The position numbers and the translations under genes are program-made. The notes beneath the pieces were generated by a model. It was not told where the DNA came from and ran no database searches. It saw only the letters and a list, made by a program, of their open reading frames with translations. Positions 2,345-50,654 of a stretch of 50,654 nt of DNA are shown here, in pieces; within the stretch, counting starts at the first letter, position 1; each line of letters begins with the position of its first letter. The stretch is from a virus (taxonomy: Duplodnaviria > Caudoviricetes), in the IMG/VR virus record IMGVR_UViG_3300006169_000158, positions 1 through 50,654 of that record. One strand, written 5' to 3'.

Positions 2345-3985
2345 TTACGACGACGCCGTCGTTGTCGACTGTACTGGTTGTGCGGGCGGACGTGCAGCAG
2401 CCTGCACCGTGGCGATTTCCTTCTGTGTCTGCGCAGCGATCTCCTGAGCCTGCAAGGCGTGCTGCGCGCTGGCATCCGCAACCTTTATGTTCTCGTCGGT
2501 CTGGATGCTCGCCTCCAACCGCATCTCCTTCTCGATCTCCTTCTCGATGTTGTCGATCTCCGTCTTGCCGAGCCCCTTGCGGCTCAGGATCCAGCGGCGC
2601 GAGACGATCTTGGCCGCATAGTCCTCGCGGTCACCGACGGCGTCGACGATGTCGCCCGACCCGATGACAACCTTGATCTCGTCGCGCTTGTCGTAGACCT
2701 CCTTCGGGTCCACCTCGTACCACGGACCTTCGGACATGCGGACGGCGTGGAGGTCGAGCATCTGGTTGGCGAGTGCCTTGATCGCCGTAATGGCGTTCTT
2801 CCGGACTCGCTGGTGCGTCGCCCGGTCCTTGCGGTTCAACACCTCCAAGGCGTACCCCGAGACGGTGCCGAGACCGCCGATGTCATCGAGGTCGATCTTC
2901 GTCAGGCCGAACTCCCGGTAGAGGTTCTTCTCCAAGAGGCGCTGCTGGCTCTCGATCATGCGGGGGTCCGTCGGGAGCGTGATCGAGTGGAGCGACGTGC
3001 CACCGGGGAAGCGAAGGACGTCAGCAATGTCCTTTGCGATCGTCTCGTCCCGACTACCAGCACCGAGGAGCGCCTGATCCCCGACGACACCGATGGTGGC
3101 GAACGAGTTCTGCCGGGCAACCCGGAACCCCAACTGGCCGAGCGCGTTGAACCGGTCCGCCGTCCCCTTGACCTTCCGCGTGATCATCGACTCGCCGAAC
3201 ATGCTGCGGATGCGTCGGCGTCCATCCCCCTTGCAGTGGACGAGGTCGAACCCCGACGTCTGCATCGGCACCCGGTTGATGATCTCGTTGTTCTCGTCGA
3301 GCGTGTAGCGAACGACCTGATTCACGATCGCCATCTCGTCGTCGATCTGACGGACCACGAGGTCGTCGTTCTCGTACATCGGCTCCCGGACGTACACGTG
3401 GGTCAGTTCACGTTCCCCGTCAGGCGTGTCGAGCGTCTCGAAGCGGTAGTAGCGAACGAGTCGCCGGTAGTCCTTGTCGCTGTAGACGGGCCAGATCTCC
3501 GAAGCGTTCCAGAAGTCAGCATTGACCCCGTCGGTGACAGCGTCGAACACCGGGTTGGCGAACGACTGTCCAGTGATCAGGGCCTCTCGGAACCAGTCGT
3601 CAGTGCGGGACTCGATGTCGAACTCGGCGAACCAAGCATTGAGCAACTCCGAGTGCGGGCCGTCGAACTTGATGCCCGACGAGAACATGTCCGCAAGGAC
3701 GTCGATCGCTTCCTGAACATGGCTGCTGTAGGCGTGCTTGCGCAGGTGCTCCGGGAGGCGCTTGTTCGCCTGAACGTAACCGGTCTTCGCAGCGAAGTCG
3801 TCGTTCTCGCCGTCGTACTGACTGCCCTCGTAGTAGGCGGCTGCCGAGGCGTACTCGATCTTGGCCTCCTGCCACTGGGCAATCTCGTGCAGGAACTGCT
3901 TCTCCTTCAGGCCGGGAATCGCATCCTCGATCGCAGGTGCCCCGTCATCGAAGGCCACCAACTGCGGGTTGGGCATGAGAGGCAT
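2345..3985 (-). CDS. Portal protein (SPP1-like)
   Basis: About 546 aa with YYEG near the N-terminus and SGYAL near the C-terminus; follows terminase. ATG 3985 has a GGAG RBS (ORF track starts at TTG 4015). Confidence 0.85.
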   Translation of the reverse strand: MPLMPNPQLVAFDDGAPAIEDAIPGLKEKQFLHEIAQWQEAKIEYASAAAYYEGSQYDGENDDFAAKTGYVQANKRLPEHLRKHAYSSHVQEAIDVLADMFSSGIKFDGPHSELLNAWFAEFDIESRTDDWFREALITGQSFANPVFDAVTDGVNADFWNASEIWPVYSDKDYRRLVRYYRFETLDTPDGERELTHVYVREPMYENDDLVVRQIDDEMAIVNQVVRYTLDENNEIINRVPMQTSGFDLVHCKGDGRRRIRSMFGESMITRKVKGTADRFNALGQLGFRVARQNSFATIGVVGDQALLGAGSRDETIAKDIADVLRFPGGTSLHSITLPTDPRMIESQQRLLEKNLYREFGLTKIDLDDIGGLGTVSGYALEVLNRKDRATHQRVRKNAITAIKALANQMLDLHAVRMSEGPWYEVDPKEVYDKRDEIKVVIGSGDIVDAVGDREDYAAKIVSRRWILSRKGLGKTEIDNIEKEIEKEMRLEASIQTDENIKVADASAQHALQAQEIAAQTQKEIATVQAAARPPAQPVQSTTTASS

Positions 3986-4142
3986 CGTGGCTCCGATCCG
4001 TGATGGTTGTGTCAATACTGCCGCAAGGCGTTGCTCTCGGGGAACAGACAGGCCGGGGGGCTAGGTCGTGTGGAGTTGTGAGCCAGCCCGTGGGAAGGCC
4101 GTACATGACGCTGGACGAGCGCCATAACTTTTAAACTTATGG

Positions 4143-5042
4143 TCAAATCTCGACCGTGTCATTGAGGCCGAGAGACGCCGGACCGTAGGCGCTCTTGCCA
4201 GCCTTCTTCAGGCCCAACTCCGCCAGCCACCAAGCGATGACCGTGTCGTCGTGCTCACCGACACCCTGCAACTTGTCATTCACCCAGCCGTAGGCCATGC
4301 ACTCGGCCAGCCAGATGTCGACCATCTCTCGGGTGATGCCGCTCATGTACGGGATGACGTACATCCCTCGTTCCAGAGCGAGCAGGAGGGACGGAACGCC
4401 GTTCTCCAACGACTGCTTCTCGGTACCGGTGTCGTGACCGATGACCGGGATCATCGTCCGCTCGGTGATCCAGTTCTGGTAGATCCGCTGGAACAGCACC
4501 GACTCCAAGACGACGACGTCATCCTTGTACCGGTTGTACGACTGCTGGATCTCGTGCAACTGCCGGTCGAACGAGATGCCCTTCCATCGCCGGATCTCCA
4601 AGATCTGTCGCTTCTGCGTCTTCCGGTGGTACGCCATCGTGTACTTCGCCGTGAAGTCGGCGGCCACCTTCTCCGAGAGGGCGAAGTCCCAGCCCGTCGT
4701 GATGACGAACTCCTCACGCAACTTGGGCGACCAGTGCTCCGTGCTGCTCGTGAACTGCAAGTTCTTGTTGAGCATCGGCTCGAACATCTCGATCGGGAAG
4801 AGCGAGGACACCGACGAGCGCGGGTTGCACATGAACTCCCGGTCGAAGACGAGCGGACCGACCTCTCGTCGCTTGCCGATCAGGCACGCCAACTGGGCCG
4901 GGCACTTCGGGCAGTCGAAGTCACAGTCGGGGATCGCTCGGATGGGCCACCGCTCGGGCCACAGGGCCTCGTGGTTCTCCAAGAGCCTTGCAATGGCAGG
5001 GTCGAGTTCCTCTTCCTCGTTCCCCATCGCGTACTGCGTCAT
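4143..5042 (-). CDS. terL: Terminase large subunit, C-terminal part (LWPE..FDREF segment plus RNase H-fold nuclease)
   Basis: ALWPERWP, GPLVFDREFMCNP, ITTGWDFA, ADFTA, VVLESVLFQ, EHDDTVIA. ATG 5042 overlaps the upstream TGA. Confidence 0.85.
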   Translation of the reverse strand: MTQYAMGNEEEELDPAIARLLENHEALWPERWPIRAIPDCDFDCPKCPAQLACLIGKRREVGPLVFDREFMCNPRSSVSSLFPIEMFEPMLNKNLQFTSSTEHWSPKLREEFVITTGWDFALSEKVAADFTAKYTMAYHRKTQKRQILEIRRWKGISFDRQLHEIQQSYNRYKDDVVVLESVLFQRIYQNWITERTMIPVIGHDTGTEKQSLENGVPSLLLALERGMYVIPYMSGITREMVDIWLAECMAYGWVNDKLQGVGEHDDTVIAWWLAELGLKKAGKSAYGPASLGLNDTVEI

Positions 5043-5446
5043 GCTGGCTCCCACTTCTTCGATGATCGGCCCAGAGCGTTGACAACAGGCGGGTACGGCG
5101 GGATCGGCGCAGCCCCCGTACCGTTCCACGGCACTGCATACCCCGAAGCCACCATCAGGTCGTTGACGCACGAGCCGTCAGGACGGTAGATGCGACCGTC
5201 GAAGCGACCTGCGTACTTGTCGAGACGAACGATCATCGCCGTCACCTTCATCCCGGTCGGAACGAGGGAGCGGAGGAAGTCCCTCGCCTCCACCGCTCCC
5301 TCCATCCCGATCTCGCGGGTGTTCAACCCCGCCAGACGACAGGACTGGTCAGCGATCTTGAACAACAAGACGTCGATCGTGAGGAACAACGTGTCTCCGT
5401 CGTACACCCTTTCGACGACCGCTGACCGAACCCTGTTGTCGATCAC
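5039..5446 (-). CDS. Thermonuclease (SNase) family nuclease
   Basis: VERVYDGDT, RLAGLNTRE, DKYAGR, VNDLMVASGYA. Confidence 0.85.
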   Translation of the reverse strand: MIDNRVRSAVVERVYDGDTLFLTIDVLLFKIADQSCRLAGLNTREIGMEGAVEARDFLRSLVPTGMKVTAMIVRLDKYAGRFDGRIYRPDGSCVNDLMVASGYAVPWNGTGAAPIPPYPPVVNALGRSSKKWEPA

Positions 5447-7644: not shown

Positions 7645-8457
7645 CTAGTCGTCATCCTTCGTACCGTCATTGACGACGCGAGCCGCACCGAACAAGCGCC
7701 ATTCGTACATCTCATTGTCACGGCAACCCATGAGCAAGTCGAGACTGTGGAACGGCGTACCGACGAGCATGATGCGCGTGGGCGGGAAGGTCTCCACCCG
7801 AGCAGGCTTCTTCACCTCCTGCACCACCCTCGTGGTCACTGGGTGAGCCATGCCGCCTACGGTTCCGAACCACCACCCCTTCAGGCGGTCGCGCTGCATC
7901 TGGGTACCGGTGTTGTTCTCGTCCTGCACGTCGTCCCCGATGATCAAGTCAGGGTGAGCACCACGAACGGCAGCACCTGAACCACGGACGGTGATGCGAG
8001 CGTCGTTCATGAACACCACCTCCTTGGTGTGCAGCACCTTCGGACTGACCAGCAGGTGCGGAGCCACTTGGTTCACCGCTGCGACCGTTCGAGCGAGAAT
8101 CTTCTCGCCCTGATCGCCGCTGTTGCAGAAGATGTACGTCCAGAAGCCCGGTCGGTAGATCGAGTGCCATGCGGCGTTGTTGATCGAGAAGATCTCCGAC
8201 TTGCCGTGCTCACGCGGGGCCAGTACGGCAGCCCGTCGGGCGTGCTGAGCGATGCGGTACCACTCCCAGTGGACTCCGGCATTCTTGAACTCCCGCTTGA
8301 TCTCCGACCACTGACCCATGTCGACCGCTGCTGCCGCTTCGAGCAGTTCTGCCTCGGTGAAGCGAGCCAACTGGGGGTGCTTGCGAATAAGCGCTGCGAG
8401 CGCGGCCCGATGAGACCCGTTGCCCTGAACGCCCGTCAGGTCATCAGTGATCGTCAC
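7645..8457 (-). CDS. terL: Terminase large subunit, N-terminal ATPase part
   Basis: Walker A APREHGKS, VRGAHPD, Walker B LIIGDD, coupling motif VGTPFH..DL; ends at TAG 7645. Confidence 0.88.
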   Translation of the reverse strand: MTITDDLTGVQGNGSHRAALAALIRKHPQLARFTEAELLEAAAAVDMGQWSEIKREFKNAGVHWEWYRIAQHARRAAVLAPREHGKSEIFSINNAAWHSIYRPGFWTYIFCNSGDQGEKILARTVAAVNQVAPHLLVSPKVLHTKEVVFMNDARITVRGSGAAVRGAHPDLIIGDDVQDENNTGTQMQRDRLKGWWFGTVGGMAHPVTTRVVQEVKKPARVETFPPTRIMLVGTPFHSLDLLMGCRDNEMYEWRLFGAARVVNDGTKDDD

Positions 8458-31942: not shown

Positions 31943-31984
31943 GGTAGTTAAAGGGTGACTCTCATCGCCTCCATGTCAAGGGTT
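31943..31984 (-). promoter_or_regulatory. Class-2 promoter
   Basis: AACCC TTGACA-16-CACCCT TTAACTACC. Confidence 0.7.
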
Positions 31985-38040: not shown

Positions 38041-38226
38041 TCACTTGATGCACTGCGGTCCACTTGTATGGCGAACCCACGAGCCGCCGACTTCGATGCA
38101 CTGTCGACCGAGTTGGTTCTCTCGCTCGTTCGCCTTGCTGCCTGCGAAGACCATGCCTCCGGCCACTCCTCCGATCGTCAGGCACAAGACGATCAGAACA
38201 GCCACGATGTGCTTCGTCTCCATCAC
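38041..38226 (-). CDS. Small membrane protein
   Basis: TM segment then C...GG.W......C. Confidence 0.65.
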   Translation of the reverse strand: MMETKHIVAVLIVLCLTIGGVAGGMVFAGSKANERENQLGRQCIEVGGSWVRHTSGPQCIK

Positions 38227-38780
38227 TCCCCCTCCCTCCGGTATCGCTTCCTGTCACGCCACTCATCACGGTCCTCGGGTGCGATGTAGTCGACTCCGAG
38301 CGCCTCGAAAATGCTCATCTCATCGGCGTACGGATCACCAGTCGATCGATCGAGGCGAACGGCATCCTTGCCGTGACCGTCGTATAGGCCGTACTGGCTC
38401 AACTTCCAGCCCTTGTTCTTGGCCAACGATCGCAGCCAGACATTGAGCGACCCAGGTCCAGAGACGAACTGAAGCGTCGCCCCTGCACAGCCCGGAGGGG
38501 CGAGGTACAACTCCACCCGGACACCTTCGATCAGTGCTACGCCACCCTTGGGCGTGAATGCGATCCGATGGTCGTCCAGCGATCCCCGATACTGCGTCAG
38601 ATCGATCACGCCATCAGTCACTACGACCAGATCGACATCACTGACGACCGGACGCTGCCTGCGGACGCTGCCTGCGATGAGGACGTCGTCGATGCCGTCG
38701 AGCGTCAGAAGCGAGTCGCGGACATAGGACGCGGCGACCTCCGCCCGGTGCAGGCCGGTCGGTGCACCCAACTTGCCCAT
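38223..38780 (-). CDS. Minimal DNA polymerase X family protein (palm and thumb only)
   Basis: AGSVRR...SDVDLVV, TLQFVSG...N..LR.LA..KG.KLSQYGL, E.SIFEALG.DYI.PE.R. Confidence 0.85.
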   Translation of the reverse strand: MGKLGAPTGLHRAEVAASYVRDSLLTLDGIDDVLIAGSVRRQRPVVSDVDLVVVTDGVIDLTQYRGSLDDHRIAFTPKGGVALIEGVRVELYLAPPGCAGATLQFVSGPGSLNVWLRSLAKNKGWKLSQYGLYDGHGKDAVRLDRSTGDPYADEMSIFEALGVDYIAPEDRDEWRDRKRYRREGE

Positions 38781-46350: not shown

Positions 46351-47437
46351 GGGCACCATCCCAGTTCGCTACTTCGGGTTTGACGCACTGGTTTCCAAGT
46401 ACGGCCTTGCAGACCGCCGCGATCCTCTCCGCAGCCTTACCGTCCCCGTACGGATTCGGTGCCTGTGCCATGGCGTCCCACTCCGACTGGTCGCTCATGA
46501 TCCACTTGGCCCAGCCGACGATCTTGTTCCTGTCACGATCAACGAGGCGTGCACCACCAGCCGCTATGCCTTCCGGACGCTCCGTCTCCGCCCTCATCAC
46601 GAGGCAGGGGACGTCGAGTGCCAGCGCCTCCTCCTGCAAGCCTCCCGAGTCGGTGAGGAGCATGCGCGAGTTCCGAACAAGGTTCACCATCTCGTCGTAG
46701 GGCAGCGGTTCGATCAACTCGACGTTCCGAATGTTCTTCATGTACTTCGGGACGACGTCACGGACGATCGGGTTCGGGTGCACCGGCCAGACGATGTAGT
46801 CGAACACCCGGTCCTGCGCCAACTGCTTGACGGCCTGACAGATGTTCCGGACCGACAAGGCATTCTCCCTACGATGCAGCGTCACGACGGCATACGACCC
46901 CTTGCGCGGCCTCGTCCGCTTCACCATCGCCAGTGCATCGATCCCCGTGTTACCGGTGACGTAGACGTTGCCTGACAGCGTCGTGGCAGCCTGCGCCGTC
47001 GGGGCGAACTTGTAGTCAGCCACCGCGTCGATCCAGACCCTGCTCGCCTCCTCAGGGAACGGCGACATCACATCCCACGAGCGCAGTCCTGCTTCAACAT
47101 GTCCTACCTTGACTCCGCCGAGGAACGCCTGCTGTGCACCGACAGCCGCCGAGAGCGTGTCACCCTGAACGATCACCATCTGAGGGTTCAGGTCGTCCAA
47201 CGCCTCCTGCATGACATTCGCCAGCAGGGCGTTCAACTCCGTCAGCGTGCCCTTGGGTCGAGTGAGCGTGTACTCGTACTCAGGGATCATGTCGAAGACG
47301 CCGAACGTGGGTCGAGCGAGGTCGGCCTGCTGGCCGGTAAACAACCACTCGGGCTCCAACCGCGCCTTGCGGAGGGCGGCGTACACAGGAGCCAACTTGA
47401 TGATCTCCGGACGAGTCCCTGCGACTACGAGGATCAT
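46343..47437 (-). CDS. wecB: UDP-N-acetylglucosamine 2-epimerase (non-hydrolysing)
   Basis: GTRPE.IKLAP, QGDT, HVEAGLRS, PFPEE, VTGNTGIDAL, TLHRREN, HPNP, TDSGGLQEEA, ERPEG, NPYGDG.A. Confidence 0.95.
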   Translation of the reverse strand: MILVVAGTRPEIIKLAPVYAALRKARLEPEWLFTGQQADLARPTFGVFDMIPEYEYTLTRPKGTLTELNALLANVMQEALDDLNPQMVIVQGDTLSAAVGAQQAFLGGVKVGHVEAGLRSWDVMSPFPEEASRVWIDAVADYKFAPTAQAATTLSGNVYVTGNTGIDALAMVKRTRPRKGSYAVVTLHRRENALSVRNICQAVKQLAQDRVFDYIVWPVHPNPIVRDVVPKYMKNIRNVELIEPLPYDEMVNLVRNSRMLLTDSGGLQEEALALDVPCLVMRAETERPEGIAAGGARLVDRDRNKIVGWAKWIMSDQSEWDAMAQAPNPYGDGKAAERIAAVCKAVLGNQCVKPEVANWDGAHA

Positions 47438-48909
47438 GACGTCACCTCTTCCTCTTCGGGCGCTGCCTCCTCAATGGTCTCAGCCTCCCAGTTCGCAGGC
47501 TTGATGACTTCCCATTCGATCGGCAACTTCCTCATCCGAGTCTCGGGGCTGTTGTGCAGATCCTCTGCGATGCCCTCGTTCATCAACCATCGACGGACAG
47601 CCCACTTGGTCGTCTGACCTCGGCGCGGGTCTTCCTTCATGGCCCGCGACTCTTCCGTCATCTGGCGATAGAGCGCCTCGATCGTGAACTCCTCCGGCAT
47701 GGACTGAAGCGCCTGAAGCGTCAGTTCGCGGTTGCTCGTGGACATCAAGCCCCGGACGTACTCCGACCCCAACTCCCGGTCCGTGACCGCCTTGTAGTGC
47801 TGCCAGTGCTCCTCGTTCGTCCGCTGCATGTCGTACTGCTCGCGGACCCAGTCACCGAGCCATGCGATCTTCTTGACCGCTTCGTCGTAGTTCTCGTGGA
47901 CCCAGCGAAGCATGACGCGGGCTTCCTCGAAGTTGTTGTACAGGAACGGGTACTCGTCGAACTTCTCCTTGAACATGCCCTGCGTCCAGTGCGTGCGGGG
48001 GGCGATCAGCACCGTGCCGTACTTCGTCAGGTACATCATCTCGGCGAACCCGACCGAGAACCCCTCATGAGCCGACGTGTTGAGGAAGACGTGCGCCCGA
48101 GCGGCCCGAGCCTTGAACTCGTCACTGGGCGTCTGGACGAGCACCTTGATCTCCGGGTACTCCTTCTTCACCATGTCGAGAATCCAGCCCTCATCCTTAG
48201 GGCTGCACACCACGATGTCGACGTCACGCCCGAACCGGAAGAAGTCGTCGTACTCCCGAAGCATGATGTCTGCCCTCTTGGACCCCTTGTTGAGACGACC
48301 ACCGAAGAAGCACGTGAACTTCTCCTCCTTGGTCGTGTCCTGACCAGCGAGGACGGCGTCGGTGCGGTCGGGGTTGAATCCGCACGGGATCACGACGCTC
48401 TTCTCGATCGCCTTCAGCGTCTGCGCTCCGGACAGGTAGCGGCGGGCTGCGCTCATCGCGTTCTTCTTCTGGATCTCCGTGTCGAACACCGGGTAGCCGT
48501 AGGCGTAGCCGAGAGTCTGCGCCATCATCTCGATCTCGCTGACCTGCGACGGCGTCAGGTTGCGCTCCACGACCATGGACTCGTCGATGAAGATGGGCAG
48601 CGACGTCTTCATGCGGTGGTCCCACAACTCTCGGGCCATCCCGATCGTCAAAGCCCGTCGCGACGTGACGAGGCCGTCGATCTGGTAGCGACCGATACGC
48701 AGGTTGAACGTGTCGAGGAACGTGCCGGGCAAGTCGGTCAACTTGTCGTAGTACAGCCCCAACTTGTCGATCCACAGGACCGAACAGCGCGGCCATTCCT
48801 CGATGATCCCCTCCCACCCTTGGTCCTTGCAGTCTTCCGGCAGGATGAAGTACACCCATGTGTCTTCGTGCTCGTGGACCCACTGCTTGATCTGGGCGGT
48901 GAACATCAC
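47434..48909 (-). CDS. Glycosyltransferase GT-B/GT4-like (main frame; the first ~18 aa appear to be encoded in another frame upstream)
   Basis: VIPCG, FGGRL...K, A.VFLNTS.HEGFSVGFAE. Confidence 0.8.
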   Translation of the reverse strand: MMFTAQIKQWVHEHEDTWVYFILPEDCKDQGWEGIIEEWPRCSVLWIDKLGLYYDKLTDLPGTFLDTFNLRIGRYQIDGLVTSRRALTIGMARELWDHRMKTSLPIFIDESMVVERNLTPSQVSEIEMMAQTLGYAYGYPVFDTEIQKKNAMSAARRYLSGAQTLKAIEKSVVIPCGFNPDRTDAVLAGQDTTKEEKFTCFFGGRLNKGSKRADIMLREYDDFFRFGRDVDIVVCSPKDEGWILDMVKKEYPEIKVLVQTPSDEFKARAARAHVFLNTSAHEGFSVGFAEMMYLTKYGTVLIAPRTHWTQGMFKEKFDEYPFLYNNFEEARVMLRWVHENYDEAVKKIAWLGDWVREQYDMQRTNEEHWQHYKAVTDRELGSEYVRGLMSTSNRELTLQALQSMPEEFTIEALYRQMTEESRAMKEDPRRGQTTKWAVRRWLMNEGIAEDLHNSPETRMRKLPIEWEVIKPANWEAETIEEAAPEEEEVTS

Positions 48910-48926
48910 AATCTCGGATGCTCACG

Positions 48927-48983
48927 CTAAGACTCGCCCTTCAAGTGGCGGAAACTTGTTATCGGAAGGACGGCTAGACGCAT
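48927..48983 (-). CDS. 18-codon ORF MRLAVLPITSFRHLKGES, probable true N-terminus of the glycosyltransferase
   Basis: AGGAGG RBS, ATG 48983, TAG at 48929-48927; resembles a GT-B first beta-strand. Confidence 0.6.
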   Translation of the reverse strand: MRLAVLPITSFRHLKGES

Positions 48984-48993
48984 GGCTCACCTC

Positions 48994-49431
48994 CTATCTC
49001 GTGAAGTGACGATGCATCGTCTTCTTCACGAACTCGGGGTCGACCTGCCATGCAGCCCGACCCTTTTTCATCATGTCCCGCACGTTGTCAGTCCTGCTGC
49101 CCCACCACAGATGATCCGGGCGTACGCACGGCGGGTTGTCGCACGTGTGGCAAGCATCGTTCTTCTCTGGGACTACTCCGGTCGCCATCCACAAGGCGAC
49201 CCTCCCGGCCATCCAGAGCCTTCCGTTCCAGTACACCTGCGGACGGCCATAAGCATTCAGTGTTGCCGTCCACATCCAACAGGATTCTTCGTCAAGAACC
49301 CGATCTACCTTCTTCCAGAAGCGGTTAGCCTGCTCGATCGCATGGAACGGCTCCCAACCGTGCTCTTCTACCAAGAGGCGTGCACATGCCATGACGAGGT
49401 CGAGATCCGACTCCGCCATCCACCACGTCAC
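48994..49431 (-). CDS. HNH endonuclease (free-standing)
   Basis: RFW.KV..CW.W....YG, CHTCDNPPCVRPDHL.WG...DN..DM..KGR. Confidence 0.88.
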   Translation of the reverse strand: MTWWMAESDLDLVMACARLLVEEHGWEPFHAIEQANRFWKKVDRVLDEESCWMWTATLNAYGRPQVYWNGRLWMAGRVALWMATGVVPEKNDACHTCDNPPCVRPDHLWWGSRTDNVRDMMKKGRAAWQVDPEFVKKTMHRHFTR

Positions 49432-49805
49432 CCTTCGTTCAACTCCTTCCACACCTCGACCTGCTCGTCCGCAGCCTTGTCGATCCACGAGTCGAACATG
49501 GTGTCTCTCGGCCCCTCGCAGTCCGGGTCCGTGCATTGAGCCTCGTGGGTCTCGTTCGCCAAGCACAGTGGGCAACCGTCGTGCTGCATTACTGCGATCG
49601 GATTGCTTGCGATAGCCATGAGGTTGTTCACGATCGCCCAGTGCGCGTTCATCAGCGGATCGAACGTGTCAATACTTCGTTCACCCTCCAACTCCCGAGC
49701 CATGTTGGACGCTGCCTTCTCGCCGCTGTCGGGAACGAGTGAGGCAAGACCCCGTTCTTCAATCGCCTTGCGGAGACGATCCCAGTGGTCTGTACAGAAG
49801 TGCAT
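49428..49805 (-). CDS. Hypothetical Cys/His protein
   Basis: FC..HW..LR.AI, FDPLM.AH, CPLC; AAAGG RBS. Confidence 0.7.
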   Translation of the reverse strand: MHFCTDHWDRLRKAIEERGLASLVPDSGEKAASNMARELEGERSIDTFDPLMNAHWAIVNNLMAIASNPIAVMQHDGCPLCLANETHEAQCTDPDCEGPRDTMFDSWIDKAADEQVEVWKELNEG

Positions 49806-49820
49806 GATGCTGCCTTTCGG

Positions 49821-50090
49821 TTATCGGAGCCAACGGACGAGCGTGAAGAAGTCGCCCCACTTGCCTTGCCAGCCACAGTGGGCGCATCCGAGCGGCCTGT
49901 CGCGAGCCCGGAGCCAGTGCGGGTTGTAGCAGATCAAGTGCGTGCGCGGCTTGCTTCGATGGCAGTTGGGGCATGCGCCTTGGATCACGATGTCAGCCGG
50001 GTTGCCGCACTGTCGGCCCGACTTCTTGTACTTCACTTCGCACGGGACCTCTGGATCGAAGTCCAGTTCGTCCAGCACGTCGAACAGCAT
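49821..50090 (-). CDS. Cys-rich protein (may start at 50186 and read through the tRNA)
   Basis: PCE..CG.PA..CPNC..CAHC. Confidence 0.6.
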   Translation of the reverse strand: MLFDVLDELDFDPEVPCEVKYKKSGRQCGNPADIVIQGACPNCHRSKPRTHLICYNPHWLRARDRPLGCAHCGWQGKWGDFFTLVRWLR

Positions 50091-50095
50091 TGCGG

Positions 50096-50177
50096 TGCCC
50101 CCGGAGGGGGTCGAACCCTCACGCCTTTCGGCACTTGCTTTTGAGACAAGCGTGTCTGCCTGTTCCACCACGGGGGC
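50096..50177 (-). tRNA. tRNA-Leu(CAA)
   Basis: Acceptor GCCCCCG/CGGGGGC plus discriminator A; D-loop GG; anticodon arm CTTGT-CTCAAAA-GCAAG; long variable arm; GAGGG-TTCGACC-CCCTC; CCA not encoded. Confidence 0.93.
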
Positions 50178-50182
50178 CTTGC

Positions 50183-50461
50183 TCATCGGGACTTGCCGAA
50201 CACTCGGACCAGCGTCGACTTGGCCATGACCGTCGGGGAGATCTTCCCGTCATCGCCAGCCCGGATCTGCAAGTGGATGCTGTCGTAAGCATCCTCGATC
50301 GATCGTACGAGCCCGTGGTCCTGCCAGACGTCCCCGACAACCACTTGCTCGGCACTGATCGTCTGCCATGACTTGCCGTGGCCCGAGACGCTGACGCTCT
50401 GTCGTCGAGGCATGAGCCCCATCGACTTGCCGTTCTCGATGATCTTTTCGACGTCAACCAT
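50183..50461 (-). CDS. Hypothetical protein (MVDVEKII...)
   Basis: AAAGGAG RBS. Confidence 0.65.
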   Translation of the reverse strand: MVDVEKIIENGKSMGLMPRRQSVSVSGHGKSWQTISAEQVVVGDVWQDHGLVRSIEDAYDSIHLQIRAGDDGKISPTVMAKSTLVRVFGKSR

Positions 50462-50654
50462 GCTTCTGCTCCTTTCGAGGGCATGTTTCGACAATCATGC
50501 GAAGCGGCGTCTCTCCTGTTGCTTCCAACTTCTTGACAACGGCCTCGGTCAAGATCGTTGCTCCACGCCAAGGGTCGCCGCTGAATCCGAAGACATGATC
50601 GGTGTAGCGAGCACCAGTGCTGTCGGTAGCCAGACAGACATGTCCGTCAACCAT
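50454..50654 (-). CDS. Hypothetical protein, possibly 5'-truncated by the window edge
   Basis: Open frame to the edge; overlaps the next gene's start. Confidence 0.45.
   Translation of the reverse strand: MVDGHVCLATDSTGARYTDHVFGFSGDPWRGATILTEAVVKKLEATGETPLRMIVETCPRKEQKHG

Follow-up and report, generated by a model that had tools for sequence, protein, structure and literature searches.

As described in the available portions of the cited reports, natural translational bypassing is found in T4 gene 60 and its MobA relatives, in the phiHau3-type terminase gaps, and in the yeast mitochondrial byps (10.1101/2022.08.31.505936; PMC10732093). The 50-nt gap of T4 travels with the gene of the HNH endonuclease MobA, adjoins a copy of the target that has diverged, and prevents self-nicking (Manning and Atkins, bioRxiv 10.1101/2022.08.31.505936, which cites Bonocora 2011 for the T4 MobA work), and the codon pairs of MobA cassettes are GAU/GAC and GGU/GGC (10.1101/2022.08.31.505936). 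The 10-nt phiHau3 gap (UUA to UAA) was bypassed in E. coli, and the junction peptide was identified by mass spectrometry (Antonov et al. 2023, PMC10732093). Synthetic stop-hops (Weiss 1987), in which matched codons flank a slow A-site codon, give a low-level hop without elaborate signals (PMC5009743). Free-standing endonucleases are reported to cut neighbouring genes and to co-convert them (PMC2988022). In the open-access literature we found no published report of bypass in a phage glycosyltransferase (GT).

Here we analyzed a candidate bypass site at the start of a large GT gene in an IMG/VR virus record of 50,654 nt (the whole of which is called the window below). The record is classed as a provirus, 50% complete, and was excised from a 100,598-nt JGI contig. 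The window contains terminase and portal genes, and its gene order is largely common to that of a 109.5-kb complete phage (G001), with which it shares many genes. The GT gene heads a minus-strand cluster that consists of the large GT, a UDP-GlcNAc 2-epimerase, a 250-aa ORF (no Pfam or PHROG match), an NAD-dependent epimerase, and a ParB-like gene. Out of about 82 called genes in the window, 62/82 end with TGA and 13/82 with TAG, so neither stop is reassigned, and stop-codon reassignment was ruled out as an explanation of the broken GT frame. No sigma-70 promoters or terminators were found in the region 47300-50654.

Other gene structures were observed in these genomes. The large terminase is encoded by two separate genes (window 7645-8457 and 4143-5171, minus strand) with several ORFs between them; both pieces match terL profiles, and the split is identical in G001. 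In the window the portal gene (2345-4015) runs without a break, but its G001 counterpart (L025, about 4330) is frameshifted, which looks like a single-base lesion. A short PolX-like gene (window 38223-38780, minus strand; DNA_pol_B_thumb, E 1.3e-16) is found in the window, and G001 and the related locus L007 have one too.

Table 1. Features at the start of the GT gene (window positions; SD, Shine-Dalgarno sequence)
Feature	Positions	Strand	Remarks
Free-standing HNH endonuclease gene (putative)	48994..49419	-	A start at ATG 49419 gives 141 aa; the other candidate start, GTG 49431, overlaps the upstream stop
SD of the GT gene	48987..48995	-	Strong; overlaps the HNH stop; anti-SD duplex -11.5, or -16.1 with a longer anti-SD motif
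GT 'exon 1', 18 codons	48930..48983	-	Encodes the predicted beta-1 strand and the loop after it; take-off is proposed at TCT, the last codon
14-nt coding gap	48916..48929	-	TAG 48929-48927; TGA 48924-48922 in the GT frame; landing proposed at TCC 48918-48916
Predicted RNA hairpin	48899..48925	-	9-bp helix of gap and Met-Phe-Thr codons, within which the landing codon and the internal ATG 48906 are buried
GT-B (GT4-like) glycosyltransferase body	47434..48915	-	493 codons from the resume codon GAG

The features at the junction are listed in Table 1. Read directly on the minus strand, the stop codon of the HNH gene (TAG 48996-48994) overlaps an AGGAGG (48995-48990), which is followed by the ATG at 48983 and by 18 sense codons, the last of which (TCT, 48932-48930) directly precedes TAG; after the landing TCC the strand continues with GAG ATT GTG (48909) ATG (48906), and the GT frame is closed by a TGA five codons ahead of the GTG. 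The original prediction had described the same layout, i.e., a strong ribosome binding site (RBS) with ATG 48983, a short ORF ended by TAG, and a GT body in another frame that lacks a good RBS and has a TGA five codons before its GTG, and the direct reading bears it out: anti-SD pairing is -11.5 kcal/mol at ATG 48983 versus -2.0 and -3.0 at the internal GTG and ATG, where there is no SD. The claim that neither readthrough nor a simple shift can join the two parts also holds, as both paths run into a TGA. TAG readthrough is ruled out by a TGA that follows 7 codons later, and a -1/+2 frameshift into the GT frame is blocked by the TGA at 48924-48922. The 14-nt gap has one exact copy in the window (itself) and a G+C content of 57%, and the register of the insert is ambiguous by up to 3 nt. 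The public gene call begins at the internal Met and misses the first 21 residues, which matters for annotation.

Homologs of the GT place the short ORF at the start of the gene. Rather than beginning at MFTAQ without the upstream 18 aa, 16 of the 23 homologous proteins that we collected carry a conserved N-terminal start (MR-x4-P...G-x-S-E), and 7/23 are called without it. It had been predicted that homologs would start with a contiguous MRxAVxP and would lack about 14-20 nt at this place, and this is exactly what we found, the missing stretch being 14 nt. Residues 1-18 of P0025 are 100% identical to the short ORF of the window, and the 18 N-terminal residues run straight into the body in the closest homologs, all of them intact, namely P0025 (89% identical over the GT body) and P0001 and P0026 (83-87%). 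DNA alignment of the window with the two closest loci (L002 and L001) gives exactly 14 extra nt at the junction in the window. The junction is contiguous in 10/10 distinct GT loci that hold the 5' end (the 11th locus, L011, is cut by a contig end).

The predicted structure agrees with this placement. P0025 matches a glycosyltransferase family (PHROG 30253, E 1.5e-17), and the AlphaFold2 model of the intact homolog P0001 (pLDDT 84.7) has two Rossmann-like domains starting at beta-1, as expected of a GT-B, GT4-like enzyme. Its match to GT4-type GT-B enzymes begins at residue 1 (best VIA Z 24.7, rmsd 3.1, 361 aligned, model range 1-402). In the model, residues 2-6 form a beta-strand, and residues 1-10 have a pLDDT of 91, in line with the earlier proposal that the joined product restores a GT-B start. 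From the contiguous N-termini of the homologs and beta-1 of the P0001 model, we conclude that the 18-codon short ORF is the true start of the GT gene. Since exon 1 carries the predicted beta-1, the GT body without it is, judging by the model, unlikely to be functional.

These results bear on the possibility that no recoding occurs, with ribosomes stopping at UAG and re-initiating at GTG 48909 or ATG 48906, so that a 490-aa protein would work without beta-1 or with the 18-aa peptide supplied in trans. The internal starts do lie 18-21 nt past the stop, and the N-terminus is absent from 7/23 homologs (protein calls only), with P0006 beginning at the same Met; but neither internal start has an SD, ATG 48906 is predicted to be paired (unpaired probability 0.0), and the protein would lack the strand that is predicted to come first in the N-terminal domain, which is aligned from residue 1 in GT4 structures. 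We consider re-initiation extremely unlikely.

Five close GT homologs that are called without the N-terminus (P0004, P0006, P0007, P0009 and P0028; protein calls only) could represent further gaps or contig ends; the call for P0004 starts near the landing position, that for P0006 at the internal Met. The ParB-like gene closely follows the GT gene in related phages, and members of the GT family in L006-L012, L014 and L027 are repeatedly found near a ParB-like gene and sugar epimerases, several of these loci also having terminase-like genes (labels assigned mostly by eye). In L007, there is an in-frame TAG near the 3' end of the GT gene (at about 5072), which is a point mutation or an assembly error.

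A hop from UCU to UCC with UAG between them gives exactly the protein length of the homologs, so the Ser TCT to Ser TCC hop of 14 nt originally put forward fits the site. UCC is the first Ser TCN codon past the take-off, and among the three such codons within 45 nt it is the only one in the GT frame. A 20-nt GAG-to-GAG hop, which had been offered as an alternative, was rejected: it drops two residues of the conserved G-x-S-E motif and its take-off codon has no stop behind it, and thus the Ser hop alone fits. As a chance control, natural 14-mers of the window were placed at random within the GT gene, and a matched synonymous landing codon with an immediate stop was obtained in 0.14% of 300,000 trials (0.10% for pairs read by the same tRNA). 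A homolog-blind scan of both strands gave six hits with such geometry at five sites, the GT site among them; the hit at 31978 (the only other one inspected) turned out to be an ordinary gene boundary. The hop geometry alone is not unique, and it is weaker without the homolog evidence.

The least probable of the explanations is that the 14 nt are removed or crossed in another way, either by RNA-level excision or by two successive +1 shifts. The +1 frame is indeed open through the junction, but it is not the GT frame, and a double shift would add about four residues in a motif that has no insertion in close homologs; for excision, an Rfam scan gave no match at the junction (its sole match was a tRNA). 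An archaeal bulge-helix-bulge intron was ruled out, with 0/4 possible registers fitting (checked by hand).

We searched for a second carrier of the gap in viral, metagenome and GTDB contigs, a set from which records very close to this genome may be absent, using single-protein and alignment scans, which yielded 11 distinct GT loci (including L027), none of them gapped; recurrence is thus 0 second carriers among the 10 loci with the 5' end, next to the 7/23 homologs whose missing N-terminus is seen in protein calls only. A pattern search for the gapped junction returned only the intact G001 copy, and one for a stop-led junction returned nothing. In the genes that the window and G001 have in common, terminase among them, we found no second bypass site and saw no other gene break. 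The insert is known from one genome only, which limits the weight of the finding. That it is an assembly or amplification artefact, with the 14 nt absent from the real phage, nevertheless appears very unlikely. The insert is on a single JGI contig, and small lesions exist in related metagenomic records (the portal frameshift of G001 and the in-frame TAG in the L007 GT), but those lesions are single-base, whereas the insert is 14 nt long, has no exact source in the window, and comes with a stop and matched codons. Assemblers seldom invent sequence of this kind.

The gene directly upstream of the GT matches Pfam HNH_3 (E 1.4e-5, 25 bits versus a cut-off of 24.8; 27.5 bits in a second search) and PHROG 826 (E 3.4e-22). 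It ends 10 nt before the GT ATG and is the sole HNH_3 match among the about 82 genes of the window. The closest other protein shares 53% identity over 67% of its length, its relatives in viral contigs are found at two distant loci, neither of them before a GT (by ORF inspection), and cultured phages match its nuclease core only. HNH_3 matches in G001-G004 are not upstream of the GT, and none of the upstream neighbours of the GT in other loci is HNH-like by eye. In L002, a 90-aa upstream gene overlaps the GT start directly, whereas in the window a tRNA-Leu(CAA), two ORFs and the HNH gene lie between the upstream gene and the GT start, all of which are missing in L002; HNH is therefore not the only extra gene, and the co-occurrence of HNH and insert is a single instance. 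For the 125-aa gene upstream, viral contigs gave no confirmed relative. No dead stub of the original 5' end was found upstream of the HNH gene, where the best local match was equalled in 7/71 control windows. With an HNH gene directly upstream, MobA-type self-protection is a likelier purpose of the insert than regulation of the operon; we found no support for the earlier suggestion that recoding could control the modification operon.

The tRNA-Leu(CAA) gene (window 50094-50177, minus strand) is located directly after a 93-aa gene, within the 1.2-kb block that is missing from L002. In L007 (5592-6819), another HNH gene (G003:3709-3843) separates the GT gene from the ParB-like one, and it begins with about 22 codons resembling the start of ParB, followed by a second, differently spelled ParB start. 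The arrangement is probably that of an endonuclease cassette which brings a replacement 5' end, within the same phage family.

The predicted hairpin at the gap depends on the region that is folded, with z scores of -3.2 (71-nt region), -2.0 (121-nt) and -0.4 (46-nt). A helix as long is found in 153/7230 natural windows, and 18/1402 GC-matched 45-mers fold as well, so the hairpin is a post-hoc feature at the 1-2% level. Its loop is 3' of the landing codon, its 3' arm is in coding sequence, and the take-off and stop codons are weakly paired. Because a stalled ribosome would unwind the helix, its role may only be to slow ribosomes or to block re-initiation. The same hexamer occurs at 48984-48990 and at 48919-48925 (minus strand), in identical register before the start codon and the landing codon (the strand has 16 copies of it), and the RBS and the gap pair about equally with the same downstream Met-Phe-Thr segment (-14.7 and -15.3). 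The shared hexamer may have a function or may be a mere trace of the origin of the gap. Anti-SD pairing of the gap is ordinary, with 299/1150 sites pairing as strongly.

Compared with L002, codons 2-18 of exon 1 contain 10 synonymous and 0 amino-acid differences. The fraction of differing codons is 10/17 in exon 1 versus 120/372 in the body (Fisher p 0.033; the highest of 28 windows), and dS is 1.76 for exon 1 versus 0.66 for the body, the former being based on a small sample. Third positions in exon 1 are AT-rich (7/17), but this was ruled out as a mark of a cassette, as 5/20 control ORF starts match it. The GT body has dN 0.09 and dS 0.66 against L002, and none of its 14 lineage-private substitutions falls in the 134 invariant columns (of 462; p 0.008), with 0/17 and 1/36 in the same test for P0025 and P0001. 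Judged from these substitutions, any inactivation would be bounded to less than about 0.01 substitutions per site ago. It may be that the GT is dispensable.

A recently inactivated gene, in which an insert made by local template switching or brought in with the HNH block killed a dispensable GT and the codon match is due to chance or micro-homology, is in our view an unlikely explanation that has several observations behind it. The insert occurs once, the closest homologs (P0025, P0001 and P0026) are intact, and the record is classed as a provirus; 8/9 gap nt match the Met-Phe-Thr codons downstream as their reverse complement, the gap shares a hexamer with the GT's own RBS in the same register, and a loss more recent than about 0.01 substitutions per site would go unseen. 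However, chance would have to account both for the 0.14% geometry and for an HNH gene (1 among about 82) next door, the gap copies neither neighbour exactly, as the product of a fresh template switch should, and the window genes shared with G001 have no further break.

We therefore favour, as the probable reading of the sequence, an insert that is linked to the nuclease, is protective, and is hopped over by ribosomes. The 14-nt insert would have arrived with the adjacent HNH endonuclease and would shield the GT gene from that nuclease; the HNH protein would be an active homing nuclease with a target overlapping GT codons 1-20, and the insert would block its cutting. During translation, the ribosome would pause at UAG and free the peptidyl-tRNA-Ser from UCU, which would re-pair at UCC 14 nt on, and translation would resume at GAG, giving a product of the same length as in the intact relatives. 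Hop efficiency may be low, with the very strong RBS perhaps compensating. Bypass, as originally proposed, is the best-supported mechanism (exact homolog length and rare geometry), although it is inferred from one genome only; new as compared with that proposal are the HNH gene 10 nt before the ATG, the synonymously diverged exon 1, and the undecayed body.

A more specific version, which we put forward tentatively and hold to be somewhat less probable than its negation, is that this is a minimal natural bypass, i.e., a stop-led 14-nt Ser-to-Ser hop in an HNH cassette unrelated to MobA, without the T4 hairpin, a mini-SD or a long nascent peptide, in which the gap reuses the RBS hexamer, equally far ahead of the landing codon, and this copy would either assist landing or act as a decoy keeping the start site open. 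If this minimal-bypass reading is true, homing nucleases repeatedly exploit basal ribosome hopping to lodge protective DNA in conserved genes. The gap is 14 nt long, follows codon 18, and has near-identical intact homologs that can serve as controls; it makes a very small and easily cloned test of the requirements for ribosome hopping, and the site could be used to probe whether self-protection of nucleases is a general reason for such gaps.

Among known enzymes, the predicted fold is like that of GT-B, GT4-like retaining enzymes (PimA, BshA, MshA and PglA), of PHROG 30253, and of gp97 of Arthrobacter phage DanielleIgnace. Among known bypass systems, the stop-hops are synthetic, and the Magnusiomyces byps are described as 27-55 nt long, mitochondrial and present in many copies (PMC5009743; 10.1101/2022.08.31.505936), whereas the gap here is single-copy. 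The Streptomyces terminase gaps (phiHau3, StrepC.1 and S. catenulae), as far as the available part of PMC10732093 describes them, are similar in being short (7-10 nt versus 14 nt), in having a conserved junction, and in the predicted structure around the gap. They differ in that the trigger is an in-frame rare UUA and the proposed role is regulatory; here the trigger is a true stop, UAG, in a GT gene, and the only TTA at the site is out of frame. No neighbouring endonuclease is mentioned in that part of the report, whereas an HNH gene is the neighbour here.

The closest likeness is to T4 MobA/gene 60. In both, an endonuclease gene is directly 5' of the recoded ORF (an HNH_3 ORF here, which does not imply orthology with MobA), a diverged 5' piece of the target lies beside the gap, the insert is at a conserved motif and changes the frame, the codons used for take-off and for landing are matched by wobble (here UCU/UCC, read by one tRNA), and UAG comes right after the take-off (here 48929-48927). 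The differences are as follows: the target is Topo2L in T4 and a GT-B glycosyltransferase here; no gene is split here and no N-terminal extension is added, exon 1 being the homologs' own start; the gap is 14 nt rather than 20-50 nt and uses Ser rather than Gly/Asp codons; there is no UUCG take-off stem-loop within the gap, no GAG, GGA, GGG or AGG 5-7 nt before the landing codon (a GAG is found 2 nt before it), and no AU-rich 3' part of the gap; the nascent peptide is 18 aa rather than 46 aa; and there is one instance rather than dozens. By analogy, the layout of HNH gene, diverged exon 1 and gap resembles the T4 MobA/gene 60 cassette in miniature, and the site would work like such a cassette but is not a member of that group.
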